29,769 nucleotides of DNA, taken from Oscillospiraceae bacterium (GTDB lineage Bacteria; Bacillota; Clostridia; Oscillospirales; Oscillospiraceae). Every line of letters begins with the position of its first letter. The stretch's first letter is position 1. The notes under the pieces were generated by a model. The model did no database searches. It saw only the letters and a program-made list of their open reading frames with translations, and had not been told where the DNA came from. Positions 17,943-24,454 of the stretch are shown one piece after another. The stretch is from contig CACZSJ010000172.1 of the NCBI GenBank assembly GCA_902783825.1, positions 1 through 29,769 on the forward strand, given 5' to 3'. Position numbers and translations under genes: made by a program.

Positions 17943-19175
17943 TTATTGTTGTCGTTCTTGCTGCGCAACAAGCTGGATCAGATGCAGGAGAATTTCCACC
18001 GTCTGATCCATGCTTTCCACACTGATGTGCTCATAGGGGCCGTGGAAGCCGTCGCCTCCTGTACCCAGGTTGGGACAGGGAAGGCCACGGAAGGATAGCT
18101 GCGCGCCGTCTGTCCCCCCTCGAATGGGTACGGATCGGGGCGACAGTCCCGCTTTGCGGATGGCTTCTTTCGCCATTTCCACCACTTCGGTGCATTCCTG
18201 CAGCTTTTCCGCCATGTTCCGGTACTGCTGCCGAATCCTCAGGTCAGCCGTACCCTCTCCATACTTTTGATTGATTGCCTGTGCAATCTCCTCCAAACGT
18301 TGCAAACGGACGCGGAAGATCTCGGCGTCGTGATCCCGGACGATATAATCCATCTCCGCTCGCTCTACGCTTCCCTTTATCTCCGTCAGGTGATAAAAGC
18401 CCTGGTATCCTTCCGTTTGCGCCGGTGTCTCCCCTTCAGGCAGCATAGCGTTGATCTCCATGGCTACGAGCCCGGCATTGATCATTTTGCCCTTGGCGCT
18501 GCCTGGGTGGACATTGAAGCCATGGATTTCCCAGTGGGCAGACGCGGCGTTAAAGGTCTCGTAGTTGATCTCTTCCGGCGCGCCGCCATCCACCGTAAAC
18601 GCAAAATCCGCGGCCAGGCGTTCCAGATCCAGCAGAGCTGCGCCATGTCCCACTTCTTCATCCGGTGTAAAGCACACGGCGATTCTCCCGTGGGGCAGTC
18701 CTTTCGCCAAGACTTGCTCGCAGGCGGTGAGAATCTCCGCCACACCTGCCTTATCGTCCGCTCCCAGAACGGTGGTGCCGTCCGTGGTAATCAGGGTATG
18801 TCCCAGCCGCCCCGCCAGGCCGGGAAAACGTGCCGGAGACAACACACGTCCGCTGTCTCCCAGGGAAATCTCCTGTCCGTTGTAGTCGGGGTGAAGCAAC
18901 GGTCTCACATTTTCCCCGGAAAAATCCGGAACGGTGTCAATGTGGGCAATCAGCCCCAACGCCGGGCTGTTCTCGCAGCCGGGGCTGGCGGGCAGCGCGC
19001 CATATACGTAGGCATGCTCGTCCTCATAAACCTCCGCAAAGCCCATCTGCTGCATCTCCTGTGCCAGCAGACGGCTCAAATCAAACTGTCTCAGCGTGCT
19101 GGGGGTCTGCGCCGCGTCCTCGGCGCTGGCTGTGTGAACCTGTGCATAGCGGATCAGTCTTTCATACGCTCGCAT
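17943..19175 (-). CDS. pepT: Peptidase T (M20B tripeptide aminopeptidase)
   Basis: AHIDT, LGADDKAG, FTPDEEVG, FTVDGG, HPGSAK, IRGGTDG and FHGPYE motifs. Its SD TAAGGAGG contains the ylmH stop codon. Confidence 0.95.
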   Translation of the reverse strand: MRAYERLIRYAQVHTASAEDAAQTPSTLRQFDLSRLLAQEMQQMGFAEVYEDEHAYVYGALPASPGCENSPALGLIAHIDTVPDFSGENVRPLLHPDYNGQEISLGDSGRVLSPARFPGLAGRLGHTLITTDGTTVLGADDKAGVAEILTACEQVLAKGLPHGRIAVCFTPDEEVGHGAALLDLERLAADFAFTVDGGAPEEINYETFNAASAHWEIHGFNVHPGSAKGKMINAGLVAMEINAMLPEGETPAQTEGYQGFYHLTEIKGSVERAEMDYIVRDHDAEIFRVRLQRLEEIAQAINQKYGEGTADLRIRQQYRNMAEKLQECTEVVEMAKEAIRKAGLSPRSVPIRGGTDGAQLSFRGLPCPNLGTGGDGFHGPYEHISVESMDQTVEILLHLIQLVAQQERQQ

Positions 19176-19185
19176 GGCAACCTCC

Positions 19186-19932
19186 TTACAAATACAGCTC
19201 CGCGTACACGAACTGCCGTCCCTTCCGAGAGGCGCCGCCGAAGCCGGTGATTTTTCCCTTTCCCATTCCCCGGAGAGACAAGACGTCTCCCTCGTGGACC
19301 AAACAGTCCGGTTTAAGGGACTGTGAATAGTTTAAACTGACACTGCCGGCGGCGATCTGACGGGCAGCTTCCGTCCGGGACAGTTTGAACAGCCCGGCCA
19401 GCACCGCATCCAGCCGCGTGCTCTGCACCGTAAAGCTCCTCTCTTCCACCCGCCGCTCCAGCCGCGGCACTGCATCCGGCGTTATTTCCTCCGCCGTCAC
19501 GCTCACCCGCCCCGCCTGATGCAGGTTCAACAGGTGCTGTAAAACACTGGGCAGGCAGAAAATCCAGGCGGTCTCCCCGTCTATGAGAATGTCGCCGACC
19601 CATTCCCGTCCCACGCCCATGCCCAGAACCGCGCCCAGATAGTCCCGATGTCCGGGGCGCCCGAAATGGGCCGTCAGTTTCATGGCGCGCAAATACGCCT
19701 TCGGCTCAAATGCCTCTGCATCCTGCTCCTCCGGCAGGAAAAAGCCCAGGGTCCGCTCGCTGTCCGGCTGTCCGCCGTAAAACAGCAGCCGACAGCCCAC
19801 CCGCTTTTTTCCCCAGGTCTCCAGCTGGAAACGCTCCGCCGGGCTAAGAAACCCAGTCACGGTAACGCAGCCTTTGCGTTGACAGCGGTCAAGCAAATCC
19901 TCCGCCCGCCGCAGCAATTCATGATTTTCCAT
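19186..19932 (-). CDS. ylmH: YlmH/Sll1252-family S4-domain RNA-binding protein
   Basis: TGFLSP, GGxxxSER, HRDYLGAVLGMGVGREWVGDI and C-terminal S4 (STRLDAVLAGLFKLSR...GDVLSLRGMGK); 248 aa. Confidence 0.88.
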   Translation of the reverse strand: MENHELLRRAEDLLDRCQRKGCVTVTGFLSPAERFQLETWGKKRVGCRLLFYGGQPDSERTLGFFLPEEQDAEAFEPKAYLRAMKLTAHFGRPGHRDYLGAVLGMGVGREWVGDILIDGETAWIFCLPSVLQHLLNLHQAGRVSVTAEEITPDAVPRLERRVEERSFTVQSTRLDAVLAGLFKLSRTEAARQIAAGSVSLNYSQSLKPDCLVHEGDVLSLRGMGKGKITGFGGASRKGRQFVYAELYL

Positions 19933-22504
19933 CTTTCAGCCTCGTTTTGTGTGCGTTGCGGTTGCTGTCCTCCAGCACCGTCCGAATCCTCGCCAGCACG
20001 TCCTGCACCTCCACAGCAAACTCCGTCGAGGAGCTGCGCAGTACGCCGGAGCGAAGCGCTGACAGTCGGATCAAATTGTCGCTGGTGATCACACGCACCG
20101 CGTAGTTTCTGCCGATTTCTCCCACCAGGCGTTCAATATAGGCGTCTCCGGTCTCCCCGTCCTTGGTAAAGGCCACGTGGATGTTGTGGTACTCGCTGCG
20201 CTGCCCGGGATTGCCGGGCCTCCGGTAGCCGTCAAAAACCAGCACCAGCTCCGCCCGGGTGTATGCGCAATAACTGGACAGCATGTCCATCAACCTGCTT
20301 CGGGCCAGATCCAACTGCTCAGCCGCCAGGGCCTTGAGTTCTTCCCAGGCAAAGATCAGATTGTACCCGTCTACAATCAGGTACTGTTGTTTTTGCTCCG
20401 TAGGCGGCGGGGCCTCCGGCGCCTCGTTGCGCACGGGCGCAGAATAAGAGCGGCGACGGATCGGCCCGAATTCCCGCTCCATGATCGCCTCCAGCTCTCG
20501 CTGGTCAATGCTGATGCTCCGGTGAACCGCCGGTTCCGGATCATCTTTGGTTCCCGGGAGACAAGTCTCCAAATGCATGTATGCGGGCACCTGATCCCAC
20601 TTGACCAAGAACCCCGCCCCGTGGGCGCAAAACACGGAATCCGCCGTGTTCTCCGGATCCCGCTCGGGATCGTAGCCCATGCTTTCCACCAGCTCCTGCT
20701 GTCTGCTGCACGGCCGGTATCCGTCCGGCTGCAGGCTGATTCTTCCCCGCCCGTGGGTATAGGCCAGAAGCTCCGTCTGATACTCGCCCAGCCCGGCAAC
20801 CGGCGCGCTGCCCTTCAGGCACAGCATGCCGTCCTGCAGTTCCTCCGGAGAGTCGAAACTGCCGTCCATGCTGCGGATGTCGCTGATGGCCCGACCGATC
20901 TGCTCGGCTGGAACTTCCAGGGAGAAGGCATACCAGGGCTCCAGGAGCACGGAACGCGCCTGCATCAGCCCCTGCCGCACCGCACGCCAGGCCGCCTGAC
21001 GAAAATCGCCGCCTTCTGTGTGTTTCAAGTGCGCCTTGCCCGCACACAGCGTGATTTTGATATCGGTAATGGGTGAAGCGGTCAGCACACCCAAATGTTG
21101 TTTCTCCTGCAAATTGGACAGGATCAGCCGTTGCCAGTTTCGATCCAGCTCGTCCTCGGGACAAGTGCTGTCCAGCACGATCCCGCTGCCCGGAGGCAGC
21201 GGCTCCAAAAGAAGATGCACTTCCGCGTAGTGGCGCAGGGGCTCAAAATGGCCCACGCCCTCCACGGTGTCCGCTATGGTCTCCCGGTACAGAATCCGCC
21301 CTCTGTCCAACGTCAGCTCCACGTCAAAGCGATCCCGGACCAGACGTTTGAACACCTCCGCCTGTACTTTGCCCATCAAGCGCACGGATATTTGCCGCTG
21401 CGCCGCATCCCAGTCCACGTGCAGCTGGGGATCCTCTTCATCCAGCAGCTGCAGCTTGGGCAGAAGCTGCGCCGCGTCCACTCCCTGAGGCAGGCCGAGC
21501 CGATAGCTGACAACCGGCTCCAGCAATCGCGGCGCCGCGTCCGGCTCCCCGCCCAATCCCTGGCCCGGCCAGGTGGCGCTGAGGCCCAGCACTGCGCAGA
21601 TTTCTCCCGCTTCCACCGTCTCCACCGTCTCATATTTCGTTCCGGAATACAAGCGAAGCTGGGTGCATTTTTCTTCCCGTTCTTCGCCCCTCTCGTCCCG
21701 ATAGCGCAGCGGCATCCGCACCCGGAGGCTTCCACCGGTCAGCCGCAGGTAGCTCAGACGTTGCCCCTGGGTATCCCGGCCAATTTGAAACACCCGCGCA
21801 GCGAAGTCCTCCCTGGGCTGCGGCACAGGCGCATAGCGGTCCAAGGCATCCAGCAGCGCGTCAACGCCATCCAGCTTGAGGCCGGAACCAAACAGGCAGG
21901 GTACCAGCTCACGCCCGGCAATCAGCCCGGCAATCTCTCGCTGCTCCAAACACCCGTTCTCCAAATAGCGCTCCATGGCCTGCTCGCTGCGAAGGGCAAG
22001 ACCTTCCCAAAAAGCTTCGTCCTGTCTGGAAAAATTCAGGCATTTATCCCCCAGCCGTTTTTGCAGCTGCGCTGTCAGCGCCGTTTCTCCAGGCCCCGGC
22101 AAGTCCATCTTACTGACAAACACAAAGCAGGGCACCTGATACTGCTCCAGCAGCCGCCAAAGCGTCTCTGTGTGGGCTTGTACGCCGTCGGTTCCGCTGA
22201 TGACAAGCACCGCGCAGTCCAAAACCGAAAGACACCTCTCCGTTTCTGCGGAGAAATCCGCATGTCCCGGCGTGTCCAGCAAGGTCACAGACGTATGAGG
22301 CAGGGTGAAGCGCGCCTGCTTGGAAAAGATGGTAATGCCCCGCTCCCGCTCCAGCCAGTGCGTATCCAGATAGCTGTCCCGATGGTCTACCCGGCCAAGT
22401 TTTTTGATTTTTCCCGCACGATACAGCATGGCCTCGACCAGGGTGGTTTTCCCTGCGTCCGCATGAGCCAGAATGCCGATCACAGTCTTTCGTTCCGTTT
22501 GCAT
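19919..22504 (-). CDS. TetM/EF-G-like translational GTPase fused to a C-terminal YacP/Rae1 NYN ribonuclease domain
   Basis: G1 AHADAGKTT, G2 ERERGITI, G3 DTPGH, G4 SKMD; EF-G-like domains II-V (HFEPLRHYAEVHL, HLKHTEGGDFRQA, LLEPWY); NYN motifs LIVDGYN, VFDG, ETGD and TSD. Start placed at ATG 22504; the track's TTG 22540 falls on the -35 box. Confidence 0.9.
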   Translation of the reverse strand: MQTERKTVIGILAHADAGKTTLVEAMLYRAGKIKKLGRVDHRDSYLDTHWLERERGITIFSKQARFTLPHTSVTLLDTPGHADFSAETERCLSVLDCAVLVISGTDGVQAHTETLWRLLEQYQVPCFVFVSKMDLPGPGETALTAQLQKRLGDKCLNFSRQDEAFWEGLALRSEQAMERYLENGCLEQREIAGLIAGRELVPCLFGSGLKLDGVDALLDALDRYAPVPQPREDFAARVFQIGRDTQGQRLSYLRLTGGSLRVRMPLRYRDERGEEREEKCTQLRLYSGTKYETVETVEAGEICAVLGLSATWPGQGLGGEPDAAPRLLEPVVSYRLGLPQGVDAAQLLPKLQLLDEEDPQLHVDWDAAQRQISVRLMGKVQAEVFKRLVRDRFDVELTLDRGRILYRETIADTVEGVGHFEPLRHYAEVHLLLEPLPPGSGIVLDSTCPEDELDRNWQRLILSNLQEKQHLGVLTASPITDIKITLCAGKAHLKHTEGGDFRQAAWRAVRQGLMQARSVLLEPWYAFSLEVPAEQIGRAISDIRSMDGSFDSPEELQDGMLCLKGSAPVAGLGEYQTELLAYTHGRGRISLQPDGYRPCSRQQELVESMGYDPERDPENTADSVFCAHGAGFLVKWDQVPAYMHLETCLPGTKDDPEPAVHRSISIDQRELEAIMEREFGPIRRRSYSAPVRNEAPEAPPPTEQKQQYLIVDGYNLIFAWEELKALAAEQLDLARSRLMDMLSSYCAYTRAELVLVFDGYRRPGNPGQRSEYHNIHVAFTKDGETGDAYIERLVGEIGRNYAVRVITSDNLIRLSALRSGVLRSSSTEFAVEVQDVLARIRTVLEDSNRNAHKTRLKDGKS

Positions 22505-22511
22505 GGGAAGA

Positions 22512-22540
22512 ATTGTATCAGTTTCCCCGGAAATAATCAA
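22512..22540 (-). promoter_or_regulatory. Sigma-A promoter for the GTPase-NYN operon, +1 predicted at the start codon
   Basis: TTGATT (22540-22535), 17 bp ending in TGA, TACAAT (22517-22512), 7 nt, ATG (22504). Confidence 0.7.
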
Positions 22541-22631
22541 CCGCTATTCCCTATTCTCCGTCAACTGCCTGCCTCCCTGTCATTTTTGTGCAAAATATTG
22601 TAGGTTTTTCCGAAACTTTGGCTACCATTTT

Positions 22632-22651
22632 TGTTAAAGCTATGTTATAAT
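22632..22651 (+). promoter_or_regulatory. OmpR/WalR-type direct repeat overlapping an extended -10
   Basis: TGTTAA-agcta-TGTTAT (22632-22648) matches TGTWAH-N5-TGTWAH; TGtTATAAT at 22643-22651. Confidence 0.55.
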
Positions 22652-22709
22652 TACTTGTCACATTGCAACCTGGCAGAAATAGTACTCTCAGTAAGGGGGA
22701 TTCAATAGA

Positions 22710-23405
22710 ATGAAACTCAAAAAGATTCTTGTTCTGGAAGACGAGGCCAGCATCCGCAGTTTCGTGGTCATCAACCTGCGCCGCAGCGGATATGAGCCCA
22801 TTGAGGCAGAATCCGGCGTTGACGCTCTGGAAAAGCTGAAGATGAATCCGGACATCTGTCTGGCGCTTTTGGACGTGATGCTGCCGGACATCGATGGCTT
22901 TGAGGTCTGTCGTCGGATTCGCGCCTCCGGCTCCAAGATGGGCGTCATCATGCTCACAGCCAAAAGTCAGGAGATCGACAAGGTCACAGGTCTGATGACC
23001 GGCGCGGACGACTACGTGACCAAGCCCTTCTCCCCCGCCGAGCTGACCGCCCGGGTGGACGCGCTGATTCGCCGTCTGGGCATCGATGACATTGACAAGG
23101 CCAGCAACGAAATCGTCAGCGGCCCATTCCTGCTCAACACCCGCAACCGCACCCTGGAGAAAAATGGCCAGCGTGTAAAGCTGACCCAGATCGAATATCT
23201 GCTGATGCGGCTCTTTTTGCAGAACCCCGGCCGCGCCATGTCCCGGGAAGACATTCTCTCTTCCGTGTGGGGCAATGAGTTCACGGGAGAACTGAAAACC
23301 GTTGACGTGAATATCCGTCGGCTGCGCATTAAGATCGAATCCGATCCCACCGAGCCTGAATACCTGACCACGGTTTGGGGCTACGGCTATAAGTGGGGCT
23401 ACTGA
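22710..23405 (+). CDS. OmpR/PhoB-family response regulator (WalR/PhoP-like)
   Basis: LEDE, LLDVMLP (phospho-Asp), GADDYVTKPFS, and winged helix TVDVNIRRLRIKIE...TVWGYGY; AAGGGGG SD. Confidence 0.93.
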   Translation: MKLKKILVLEDEASIRSFVVINLRRSGYEPIEAESGVDALEKLKMNPDICLALLDVMLPDIDGFEVCRRIRASGSKMGVIMLTAKSQEIDKVTGLMTGADDYVTKPFSPAELTARVDALIRRLGIDDIDKASNEIVSGPFLLNTRNRTLEKNGQRVKLTQIEYLLMRLFLQNPGRAMSREDILSSVWGNEFTGELKTVDVNIRRLRIKIESDPTEPEYLTTVWGYGYKWGY

Positions 23406-23464
23406 GTCCTTTTCTGCCCGCCGGGCGGGCAAGATCGCGTTCTCTTGAGTGAGGTTGACAGATC

Positions 23465-24454
23465 GTGAAAAATCTGAAGATCCAGCTACTTCTGGCCGGT
23501 ATCGCGGTTTTGGCGCTGCTGTTGCTGGGTGTGTGGGCAGTAACCCGTGCCATGCCGACTCTTGCCATGGGCGCCATGGTGGCGGTATGTCTGAGCGTCA
23601 TCCTGCTGATTGTCTGGTTCTGGCGCAGTGTGTCGGACCCCATTGATCAGCTTACAGACTTCGCCGCACAGATCGCCGCCGGCAGCTACGGAAGCCAGTT
23701 GGAAAAAAGAAGTGACAATGAAATAGGACGCCTGACGGACGCTATCAACAACATGTCCCAACAGGTCGCCATGGCGGAAAAAACCCGTACTGAGTTTATT
23801 TCCCAGGTCTCCCACGAGCTGCGCACGCCCTTGACAGCCATCACCGGCTGGGCGGAGACCATTGCCTACGATCCCTCGGTGCAGGACGACTCCCTGCGCG
23901 GGATCCACATCATCTCCAAAGAGGCGGAGCGCCTGACCGGTCTGGTCACGGAGCTTCTGGAGTTCACCCGGATTCAGGACGGCCGTTTCAATCTGCGCAT
24001 CGAGCTGATCGATATTGCCTCGGAGTTGGAAGACGCCATCTTCACCTACGGGGAGCTGATGCGTCAGGCTGGCATCACCATCAACTATTCGCAACCGCCC
24101 ACGGAGATCCCATTGATCCCCGGCGACCCGGAGCGGCTCAAGCAGGTTTTTCTCAATCTGCTGGACAACGCTATGAACCACGGTGGGGACGGAAAACTGG
24201 TAGACGTTTCTCTCCGGCTCAAGGAGGACGGTGTCCATATCCGTGTTCGGGACTATGGCCACGGCATCCCCGAGGCAGAGCTTCCCCACGTCAAGGAAAA
24301 GTTCTACAAAGGCAGCTCCAAGAACCGAGGCACCGGTATTGGTCTTGCCGTCTGCGATGAGATCATCTCCCGCCACAAGGGCAGTATGACCGTGGAAAAC
24401 GCCGTGGGCGGCGGCTGTCTGGTGACGATCGTGCTGCCCATGTCATCCAAATAA
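23465..24454 (+). CDS. HAMP-domain sensor histidine kinase lacking an extracellular sensor loop
   Basis: Two closely spaced TMs; HAMP; H-box SHELRTPLT; N-box LNLLDNA; G1 DYGHGI; G2 GTGIGL. GTG start with GAGG SD. Confidence 0.9.
   Translation: MKNLKIQLLLAGIAVLALLLLGVWAVTRAMPTLAMGAMVAVCLSVILLIVWFWRSVSDPIDQLTDFAAQIAAGSYGSQLEKRSDNEIGRLTDAINNMSQQVAMAEKTRTEFISQVSHELRTPLTAITGWAETIAYDPSVQDDSLRGIHIISKEAERLTGLVTELLEFTRIQDGRFNLRIELIDIASELEDAIFTYGELMRQAGITINYSQPPTEIPLIPGDPERLKQVFLNLLDNAMNHGGDGKLVDVSLRLKEDGVHIRVRDYGHGIPEAELPHVKEKFYKGSSKNRGTGIGLAVCDEIISRHKGSMTVENAVGGGCLVTIVLPMSSK

Follow-up and report, generated by a model that had tools for sequence, protein, structure and literature searches.

A Tet/EF-G-like translational GTPase fused to a Rae1-type NYN nuclease in Clostridia: a candidate replacement for Rae1

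A gene in which an EF-G/TetM-related GTPase is joined to an intact Rae1-type nuclease domain was confirmed as a real fusion in a 29,769-nucleotide stretch of DNA from an Oscillospiraceae bacterium (contig CACZSJ010000172.1), referred to here as the window. Our main reading, to which we give a probability of roughly 0.55, is that this gene is the Clostridial Rae1, with a NYN nuclease tethered to a GTPase-competent EF-G/Tet-like factor and acting as a GTP-controlled mRNA endonuclease on stalled or collided ribosomes. The computed basis for this reading consists of the domain anatomy, catalytic residues that are intact in both modules, the phylogenetic position, the non-overlap with Rae1 and the presence of a rescue toolkit. 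From these we infer ribosome binding, GTP control, the nature of the RNA substrate and the position of cleavage.

Domain anatomy and catalytic residues

The reading frame runs from an ATG at 22504 to a stop codon at 19919-19921, and is open up to a TTG at 22540 (Table 1). An AlphaFold2 (AF2) model of the 861-amino-acid product had a mean pLDDT of 92.3 and a pTM of 0.78. An earlier note on this DNA had described EF-G-like domains I to V followed by a linker and a NYN domain, and this was borne out by a Pfam domain search, in which GTP_EFTU, EFG_IV, EFG_C and NYN_YacP were matched. The full order is EF-G-like domains I to V, a C-terminal module of ∼50 amino acids, a linker of ∼60 amino acids and the YacP/Rae1 NYN domain. 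All of the strings quoted in the note were located, namely HRSISIDQRELEAIMEREFGPIRRR, VDGYN, VFDG (D758), ETGD (D787), TSD (D809) and HLKHTEGGDF, and the aspartate of VDGYN, which it had placed at 20369-20371, is exactly Asp712.

Table 1. Features of the fusion gene and its locus in window coordinates
Feature	Position	Strand	Residues	Details
Fusion CDS, Tet/EF-G-like translational GTPase + Rae1/YacP NYN nuclease	19919..22504	-		861 aa
G domain	21827..22483	-	8-226	Pfam GTP_EFTU 7.6e-49
Domain II	21575..21805	-	234-310	Pfam EF-G_D2 5.7e-6; beta-barrel in AF2 model
Domain III	21305..21520	-	329-400	Pfam EFG_III 5.9e-6
Domain IV	20957..21301	-	402-516	Pfam EFG_IV 3e-16
Domain V	20699..20950	-	519-602	Pfam EFG_C 3.3e-18
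Family-specific C-terminal module	20570..20710	-	599-645	PC..(27)..SVFCxHGAG..W..V..MH
Variable linker/tether	20387..20569	-	646-706	predicted disordered save short helix
NYN_YacP (Rae1-type) nuclease domain	19940..20380	-	709-855	Pfam 4.7e-39
Catalytic Asp codons	20369-20371; 20231-20233; 20144-20146; 20078-20080	-	D712; D758; D787; D809
ylmH-like gene	19186..19932	-		248 aa; YlmH_RBD + S4; downstream of fusion
pepT (peptidase T)	17943..19175	-		NCBIfam PepT 528 bits vs cut-off 255; third co-oriented cluster gene
Promoter-like site	22505..22540	-		TTGATT-N17-TG-n-TACAAT-N7-ATG; read from sequence; directly before start codon

The G domain contained a P-loop (AHADAGKT), switch I T58 and a DTPGH motif with the catalytic H81. 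Comparison of 93 diverse fusions detected invariant residues at D16, G18, K19, T20, T58, D77, P79, G80, H81, K132 and D134. The G1 to G4 motifs and the switch II catalytic His of the GTP_EFTU superfamily (PF00009) were all in place, with S for N in G4: the window protein has SKMD (S131-K-M-D134) and not NKxD, and position 131 was N in 75, S in 9 and T in 9 of the fusions. The serine, as found in 9/93 relatives, is an observation that counts against the explanation of the fusion as a replacement for Rae1. Residues 154-228 paired with residues 160-303 of Thermus thermophilus EF-G, indicating that the G' insertion is reduced and not full. The tip of domain IV had two family-specific loops, GVGHFEPLRHYAE at residues 416-428 and GKAHLKHTEGGDFRQA at residues 489-504. 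In the first of these, G418, H419 and E428 were invariant among the 93 fusions. The second, which includes HLKHTEGGDF at residues 492-501 and aligns to GSYHEVDSSEMAF of EF-G, had H492, K494, H495, T496, D500, F501 and R502 conserved in at least 90%.

The C-terminal module was absent from EF-G and Tet proteins but was kept, according to the alignment, in fusions and in a NYN-less homologue from Ligilactobacillus salivarius. Within this module, S623, F625 and G629 were invariant, and C599 (80/93), C626 (82/93), H628 (71/93) and H644 (88/93) were frequent, in the 93 fusions. The AF2 model predicted strands at 623-627 and 630-634 and helices at 602-609 and 636-642 with a high pLDDT. The residue pattern suggests that C599, C626, H628 and H644 may form a putative metal site. 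In the linker, pLDDT values fell below 50 at residues 659-666 and 684-696, and HRSISIDQRELEAIMEREFGPIRRR spans residues 661-685. A conserved short helix was predicted by AF2 at 668-679 (ELEAIMEREFG; 20465-20503), and this region exhibited conservation of E670 (83/93), I674 (81/93), R677 and G680 in the fusions.

The nuclease domain scored 134.5 bits against a gathering cut-off of 24.6 for NYN_YacP (PF05991), covering profile positions 1-148 of 166, and matched the Bacillus subtilis YacP/Rae1 structures 5MQ8/5MQ9 at 1e-18. A D-G-Y-N motif (D712, G713, Y714, N715) was present, and D712, D758, D787 and D809, whose codons were verified against the window sequence, paired with D7, D53, D81 and D104 of Rae1 (PDB 5MQ8; Rae1 numbering from alignment to this structure). 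In the 93 fusions, D712, Y714, N715, D758, T780, D787 and D809 were invariant. A helix past the nuclease core was predicted by AF2 at residues 826-860, and conserved C-terminal helices have been described for the NYN_YacP family (Matelska 2017, PMC5499597). The fused domain and B. subtilis Rae1 thus have in common the NYN_YacP fold, the GYN motif, the four active-site Asp residues and a long C-terminal helix. Rae1, however, is a stand-alone protein of ∼170 amino acids, whereas the nuclease described here is the C-terminal fifth of an 861-amino-acid protein, behind a GTPase and a tether.

Relationship to Tet proteins, EF-G and nuclease-less relatives

The best NCBIfam match was tet_protect (NF012153), in one continuous stretch over residues 9-596, with a score of 378.7 bits, below the cut-off of 775. 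Scores were also below the cut-offs of NF033148 TetM/W/O/S (246.3 versus 1100 bits), Tet(M) (209.3 versus 1420) and EF-G (TIGR00484; 269.8 versus 659.4 bits). Identity to Tet(M), Tet(O), Tet(S), Tet(36) and TetB(P) was 28-30%, the same as to EF-G. The YSPVST sequence of domain IV loop III reaches the tetracycline site. This loop was not found in the fusion: when Tet(M) and Tet(O) sequences annotated on plasmids were aligned, their GLYYSPVSTPADF fell opposite GKAHLKHTEGGDF, in keeping with the earlier observation of HLKHTEGGDF at the domain IV tip instead of the YSPVST of TetM/TetO. The replacement loop, AH.KHTEGGDF, was conserved among 93 relatives.

A GTPase phylogeny (a quick IQ-TREE analysis with SH-aLRT support only) was constructed, and EF-G genes from other Clostridia served as comparators in place of the genome's own EF-G. 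The fusion and NYN-less standalone proteins formed one clade (support, 100) outside and sister to the Tet(M)/(O)/(36)/B(P) clade (support, 100). The five-domain EF-G-like layout and a shortened G' are common to the fusion and Tet(M)/Tet(O) (PDB 3J25, 3J9Y and 4V6V), which are alignable over residues 9-597 versus 5-610. The Tet C-terminal helix, in contrast, is replaced in the fusion by the larger conserved Cys/His module, the NYN domain is added, and the gene is a chromosomal housekeeping gene and not a mobile one. The fold of EF-G (Foldseek E about 1e-54 to EF-G chains), its G motifs and its catalytic His are likewise retained, and H492 aligns to the domain IV tip His of T. thermophilus EF-G. 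The fusion differs from EF-G in that G' is largely absent, domain IV loop I reads GHFEPLRHYAE and the clade is separate.

The NYN-less members of the clade were located inside the fusion clade (support, 100). One of these, LSL_RS10690 of L. salivarius UCC118 plasmid pMP118, has 644 amino acids and is 46% identical across the whole GTPase part. Such 'translation factor GTPase family' proteins of Lactobacillales and some Clostridia have the domain IV tip motifs and C-terminal module in common with the fusion but stop directly after this module, with neither linker nor nuclease, and they too are uncharacterised. Their existence indicates that the GTPase has a function of its own, which need not be nuclease delivery, and this counts against the Rae1-replacement explanation. 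One genome (G344) had two NYN-less GTPase copies plus a standalone Rae1, which were not adjacent. The standalone GTPase was considered as an obligatory partner of standalone Rae1 and rejected, as it was present in only 1/5 complete genomes with standalone Rae1.

One NCBI homologue and one from Agathobacter rectalis were labelled TetM/TetW/TetO/TetS, in agreement with the claim that this architecture is often auto-labelled as tetracycline resistance. A fARGene survey of novel Tet genes (PMC7725328) had nothing on the fusion family. The further claim, in the sense that this is not a classical tetracycline ribosomal-protection gene, is well supported computationally by the sub-cut-off tet_protect score, the low identity, the replaced loop, the sister clade and the chromosomal housekeeping context with its unremarkable composition.

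Distribution and genomic context

A NYN_YacP domain was detected in 135 of 210 sampled Clostridia genomes. When sorted by frame length, 78 of these had a fusion (724-928 amino acids), 56 a standalone protein (164-213 amino acids) and 1 a domain in a 351-amino-acid frame. No genome among the 210 had both a fusion and a standalone Rae1 above the cut-off, and the same fusion/standalone pattern was observed in a 400-genome sample. The single NYN_YacP match in the window genome was the fusion. In a tree of the NYN domain, one branch (SH-aLRT, 99) separated 35 fused from 19 standalone domains, so that fused domains grouped apart from the standalone Clostridial Rae1; this grouping is consistent with a single origin of the fusion. 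The lack of co-occurrence and the single-branch split make the fusion look like a Clostridial replacement for Rae1. The fusion was present in 37% of the sampled Clostridia species, is common among Clostridia of the gut and rumen, was retained over 150 or more clusters defined at 50% identity, and is single-copy and apparently vertically inherited. Neither form was found in 36% (210 genomes), indicating that the function is dispensable, a point against the Rae1-replacement explanation. The architecture had been called known but biochemically uncharacterised, which agrees with the literature: it was catalogued by Atkinson 2015 (PMC4342817) and Matelska 2017 (PMC5499597), and no biochemical or genetic characterisation of any family member was found in the literature searched. 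The window protein adds a member to this catalogued architecture.

The fusion is followed by ylmH, a ribosome quality-control gene, and pepT. The ylmH ATG precedes the fusion stop codon by 14 nt, producing an overlap, and this is the sole YlmH in the assembly. Both the overlap and the fusion-ylmH-pepT order were also present in three close relatives (L029-L031; 68-76% identity). Across 20 diverse Clostridia fusion loci, no shared neighbour was detected either by tblastn with nine window proteins or by all-versus-all clustering of the three nearest genes to either side, indicating that the ylmH-pepT linkage is lineage specific. A conserved operon partner throughout Clostridia was accordingly rejected. 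The confinement of ylmH linkage to one small lineage was noted as counting against the Rae1-replacement explanation.

The window genome contained tmRNA, RqcH and MutS2 and so, with YlmH, the same rescue partners as Rae1. A full-length EF-G was not found in this assembly, which is 86.5% complete. The fusion gene had no mobile-element neighbours, and there was no G+C anomaly indicative of horizontal transfer (0.60-0.62 for the gene versus 0.52-0.62 for its surroundings). No Shine-Dalgarno sequence was read ahead of the fusion ATG. The promoter-like geometry was the same in L029, and AGGAGG was present instead in L030 and L031. In two bovine RNA libraries, just a few short contigs matched the window exactly, and one of them reaches 26 nt upstream of the fusion ATG; DNA carry-over is possible and the contigs are too thin for transcript ends. 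These contigs are compatible with expression of the fusion gene.

Proposed function and alternatives

Rae1 cleaves at the tail of ribosomes that have stalled and, after collisions, feeds trans-translation, and it has lately been given a central place in a Gram-positive pathway of collision rescue (PMC12407103; PMC13622287). Domains, residues and distribution point to a GTP-controlled mRNA endonuclease as the most likely function of the fusion. The earlier description of a GTP-gated, ribosome-dependent RNase fits the intact G motifs, H81, the invariant NYN aspartates and the non-overlap with Rae1. The GTPase module would dock at the factor site when a ribosome has stalled or collided and its A site is free or its translocation blocked, and the conserved domain IV tip would probe the decoding centre. 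In this docked GTP state, the tethered nuclease would cut RNA within reach. The likeliest target would be mRNA lying at the stalled ribosome's edge, comparable to the cut that B. subtilis Rae1 makes 12 nt upstream of the A site in a stalled ribosome. Hydrolysis of GTP would then release the factor, and the cut mRNA would pass the ribosomes to tmRNA and the RqcH/YlmH pathway. The proposed role resembles that of SmrB in Escherichia coli and Cue2 in yeast, in which mRNA cutting at collided ribosomes produces substrates for tmRNA or rescue (PMC12407103; PMC13622287). Those enzymes, however, lack a GTPase and their nuclease is of the unrelated SMR fold, and the likeness is a functional analogy only.

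A more tentative possibility is that the GTPase part belongs to a distinct Tet-sister family sensing arrested ribosomes, which in Clostridia captured Rae1 once, generating a GTP-proofread collision nuclease on the trailing ribosome of a disome, whose translocation is blocked. The GTPase part would have its own decoding-centre loops and Cys/His C-terminal module for this role, and the tether of 60 residues, conserved helix included, would bring the NYN active site to the mRNA between the two ribosomes. If true, this would account for the way in which enzymes of the Rae1 type locate the 'tail end' of a ribosome that has stalled.

Less likely than our main reading is a role in ribosome maturation or decommissioning, whereby the EF-G-like module would dock on ribosomes that are immature, damaged or hibernating, and rRNA (or tRNA), not mRNA, would be what the NYN domain trims or cleaves. 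YacP-type NYN domains were first predicted to process rRNA/tRNA, from their neighbourhood with mrnC and rRNA methyltransferases (PMC5499597; PMC4342817), rRNA elements are the nearest RNAs from the factor site, and the conserved His/Lys-rich domain IV tip could hold decoding-centre rRNA. However, Rae1, the homologue that has been characterised, cuts mRNA as an endonuclease (PMC12407103; PMC13622287), none of the 23 loci examined had linked rRNA-processing genes, and the fusion and standalone Rae1 never occur together, which argues for the same job. It is improbable that the two halves act independently, with the fusion an accident that co-expresses a GTPase and Rae1 without delivery or gating. 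Both modules do exist as separate, non-adjacent proteins in G344, and the linker is long and predicted to be mostly disordered, but the fused NYN domains form one tree group, the short linker helix is conserved and the fusion displaces standalone Rae1; its persistence over so many clusters suggests selection for the covalent link. Least probable is genuine ribosomal protection, whether from tetracycline or from a different A-site antibiotic, in which the nuclease would serve as an accessory or regulatory add-on, for despite the tet_protect match, the sister position to Tet proteins, the public labels and the novel RNase-based resistance mechanism raised as a possibility by Atkinson 2015 (PMC4342817), the protein is no closer to Tet proteins than to EF-G, falls below every Tet cut-off and outside the Tet clade, has a different conserved motif for YSPVST and is encoded by a widespread, apparently vertical gene with ordinary G+C and no mobile neighbours.

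On the preferred reading of the fusion as the Clostridial Rae1, the welding of a nuclease to a ribosome-docking GTPase in 78 of 135 NYN_YacP-bearing Clostridia is a natural experiment, which suggests that Rae1 is recruited through the factor-binding site. The fusion also lends itself to structural trapping, either by GDPNP or by mutation of His81. Thousands of family genes from gut and rumen bacteria are labelled as TetM/TetW/TetO/TetS resistance, a label that is unsupported by sequence and leads to inflated resistome counts.

Domains and catalytic motifs of the fusion

An ORF scan placed the stop codon of the fusion gene at positions 19919 to 19921 on the minus strand and the start at 22540 (TTG) or 22504 (ATG), with translation from the ATG yielding 861 residues. 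The earlier note had described EF-G-like domains followed by an NYN domain, and this description was correct: every part that it named was detected in a Pfam search, and the strings that it quoted and the Asp codon at 20369 to 20371 were located exactly by translation and a codon check. These results and structure prediction together confirmed the observation. A confident AlphaFold2 model (mean pLDDT, 92.3; pTM, 0.78), for which 93 diverse homologues were used as input, had EF-G chains as its top Foldseek matches (E of about 1e-54) and was poorly ordered only at residues 646 to 706, except for a short helix at 668 to 679.

Features of the fusion and neighboring genes
Feature	Position	Strand	Remarks
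GTP_EFTU	residues 8-226		Pfam
EF-G_D2	residues 234-310		Pfam
EFG_III	residues 329-400		Pfam
EFG_IV	residues 402-516		Pfam
EFG_C	residues 519-602		Pfam
NYN_YacP	residues 709-855		Pfam, 4.7e-39
G4 motif, S-K-M-D (not N-K-x-D)	window 22112-22114	-	sequence; Ser at residue 131
YlmH-type gene (YlmH_RBD + S4)	downstream, 14-nt overlap with fusion	-	only one in assembly
pepT	next after ylmH, downstream of fusion	-	
OmpR/YycF-type response regulator	window 22710-23405	+	upstream of fusion, divergent
Histidine kinase	window 23465-24454		after response regulator
DUF1385, prmC, recA	after histidine kinase		upstream side of fusion

Residues 708 to 842 matched structures of YacP/Rae1 from B. subtilis (5MQ8 and 5MQ9; 1e-18), and D712, D758, D787 and D809 aligned with D7, D53, D81 and D104 of Rae1. 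These four residues, together with Y714, N715 and T780, were invariant in the 93 fusions. By every sequence criterion, the nuclease half qualifies as an orthologue of Rae1. The P-loop, T58, DTPGH81, K132 and D134 were invariant in the fusion family. Residue 131 of the NKxD motif was N in 75, S in 9 and T in 9 of 93 members, and the presence of Ser or Thr in 18 of these argues that S-K-M-D is tolerated in this family and does not mark a defect. Judged from its motifs, the GTPase machinery is intact.

Relationship of the GTPase half to Tet proteins and EF-G

Compared with annotated plasmid genes, the GTPase part exhibited 28 to 30% identity to Tet(M), Tet(O), Tet(S), Tet(36) and TetB(P). Identity to EF-G was 28%, and the fusion scored 270 with the EF-G model against a cut-off of 659. 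Higher levels of identity were detected with an NYN-less "TetM family" protein of Ligilactobacillus salivarius megaplasmids (46%) and with Agathobacter and Monoglobus proteins (51 to 54%). A maximum likelihood tree with an RF3 outgroup (quick search, SH-aLRT support only) contained an EF-G clade (99), a separate clade of the four Tet proteins (100) and a third clade (100) of fusions and NYN-less homologues, which was sister to the Tet clade (joint node, 95) and in which NYN-less members were scattered among fusions. The nearest kin of the fusion's GTPase are NYN-less proteins, not Tet determinants, and this half of the fusion can be classed neither as EF-G nor as a Tet protein.

Tet(M) and Tet(O) carry the tetracycline-dislodging loop GLYYSPVSTPADF, whereas the fusions and the NYN-less homologue have G[KR]AH.KHTEGGDFRQA at the aligned position, which bears out the absence of this loop proposed in the earlier note. 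This loop and a second domain IV tip loop, GVGH[FY]EPLRHYAE, were nearly invariant among the 93 fusions (38 to 76% identical to the window protein) and were also present in the NYN-less homologue. Domain IV bears a distinct, conserved, predicted decoding-centre probe. After domain V, Tet proteins have a short C-terminal helix, whereas the fusion has a conserved module of ~50 residues (599 to 645) with the signature SVFCxHGAG, W636 and H644. Cys599, Cys626, His628 and His644, kept in 71 to 88 of 93 sequences, may constitute a metal site.

NYN-less clade members occurred in some cases in a genome that also has standalone Rae1. Clostridial genome G344 encodes standalone Rae1 and, far from the rae1 gene, two NYN-less paralogues (G344:C1:577258-579189 and 1255709-1257640) of 655 and 647 aa, 40 to 41% identical to the window protein. 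The NYN-less gene of L. salivarius UCC118 plasmid pMP118 (L022:4411-6929; 644 aa, 46% identical) lay in divergent orientation beside an additional rpsN gene, for ribosomal protein S14, and a gene annotated as a small "putative metal homeostasis protein"; these neighbors and the Cys/His positions of the C-terminal module hint at a link of the family to zinc-dependent ribosome remodelling. In another genome, a 666-aa GTPase (G216:C1:1959941-1961830) had a branching position intermediate between the Tet proteins and the fusion clade; it was 34 to 47% identical to the window protein, in an alignment extending only to about residue 610, and may represent a further uncharacterised Tet-like lineage. 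A full-length canonical EF-G gene was not found in the window's assembly (245 contigs), where the best match was a 536-aa frame on contig C169, most likely because the str operon was incompletely assembled rather than because the gene is truly missing.

Distribution, genomic context and start site

Among 210 Clostridia genomes, all at least 90% complete except the window's own, the NYN_YacP domain was detected in 135, with 78 matches in frames of 724 to 928 aa (fusion), 56 in frames of 164 to 213 aa (standalone Rae1) and 1 in a frame of 351 aa. None of the 210 had both forms above the cut-off, and a 400-genome sample gave the same picture. The assembly to which the window belongs (1.67 Mb, 86.5% complete) contained one match, which was the fusion gene. 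A protein search detected thousands of fusion homologues, and at least 150 clusters were counted at the 50% identity level; the spread of the fusion far exceeds that recorded in 2015, when the count was "ten species" (PMC4342817). These numbers indicated that the fusion is the majority form of Rae1 in Clostridia. One branch of an NYN-domain tree (SH-aLRT, 99) parted 35 fused from 19 standalone domains, in keeping with a fusion that occurred once.

The G+C content of the fusion gene was unremarkable, no mobile-element genes were found nearby, and the gene behaves as a housekeeping gene passed on vertically would. The fusion-ylmH-pepT order and the identical 14-nt overlap were present in relatives with 68 to 76% identity, as was, in relatives, the layout from the response regulator to recA. 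At 20 fusion loci of other Clostridial families, neither ylmH nor any other common neighbor was found. A 293-aa ORF just upstream of the fusion (22551 to 23432, minus strand) matched no family and is probably an artefact; the true gene at this place is the response regulator.

Directly 5' of the fusion ATG was the arrangement TTGATT-N17-(TG)n-TACAAT-N7-ATG, without a Shine-Dalgarno sequence (22505 to 22540, minus strand), the spacing that a leaderless mRNA would be expected to have. Close-relative locus L029 (76% identical; L029:5045-5093), where the database gene call begins 26 codons too early, had this arrangement as well, while L030/L031 (68% identical; L030:4970-5003) had an ordinary AAGGAGG spacer instead. 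Several short contigs with full identity to the window came from two bovine metatranscriptome libraries; one spanned the fusion stop and ylmH start (19791 to 19941) and another extended 26 nt 5' of the ATG (22310 to 22530). If RNA-derived, the latter makes it less likely that transcription starts exactly at the ATG; with thin coverage and possible DNA carry-over, these contigs support only the occurrence of the organism in cattle samples.

Models for the function of the fusion

The architecture had been catalogued by Atkinson (2015) and by Matelska et al. (2017). Full-text literature searches found no functional study of the fusion, which was not mentioned in PMC12407103 or PMC13622287. The GTP-gated, ribosome-dependent RNase proposed in the earlier note is a reasonable, unproven interpretation. 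In the general model, to which we assign a probability of about 0.55, the GTPase would dock on arrested ribosomes at their factor site, the mRNA would be cleaved by the NYN domain on its tether, and GTP hydrolysis would time release. By analogy with Rae1, the cut would fall at the trailing edge of the stalled ribosome, which in a disome would adjoin the trailing ribosome on its entry side, a place where a factor could sit. Rae1 cuts at the tail end of a stalled ribosome (PMC12407103) and makes tmRNA substrates after collisions, and tmRNA, RqcH and MutS2 are partners of B. subtilis rescue pathways (PMC13622287); all three are encoded in the window's genome. The main uncertainty is a separate function of the GTPase, to which the existence of NYN-less clade members points.

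It is unlikely that the target is instead rRNA or tRNA, cleaved for maturation or decommissioning. Functional independence of the two halves is improbable, and true antibiotic protection is more doubtful still. With tet_protect, its best curated model, the fusion reached 378.7 bits, short of the cut-off of 775.

Overall, the window gene is a real and typical member of a catalogued, biochemically untouched architecture. It joins two intact catalytic modules by a flexible tether in a genome in which downstream rescue systems are present, and in the Clostridia that carry it, this fusion appears to stand in place of standalone Rae1.
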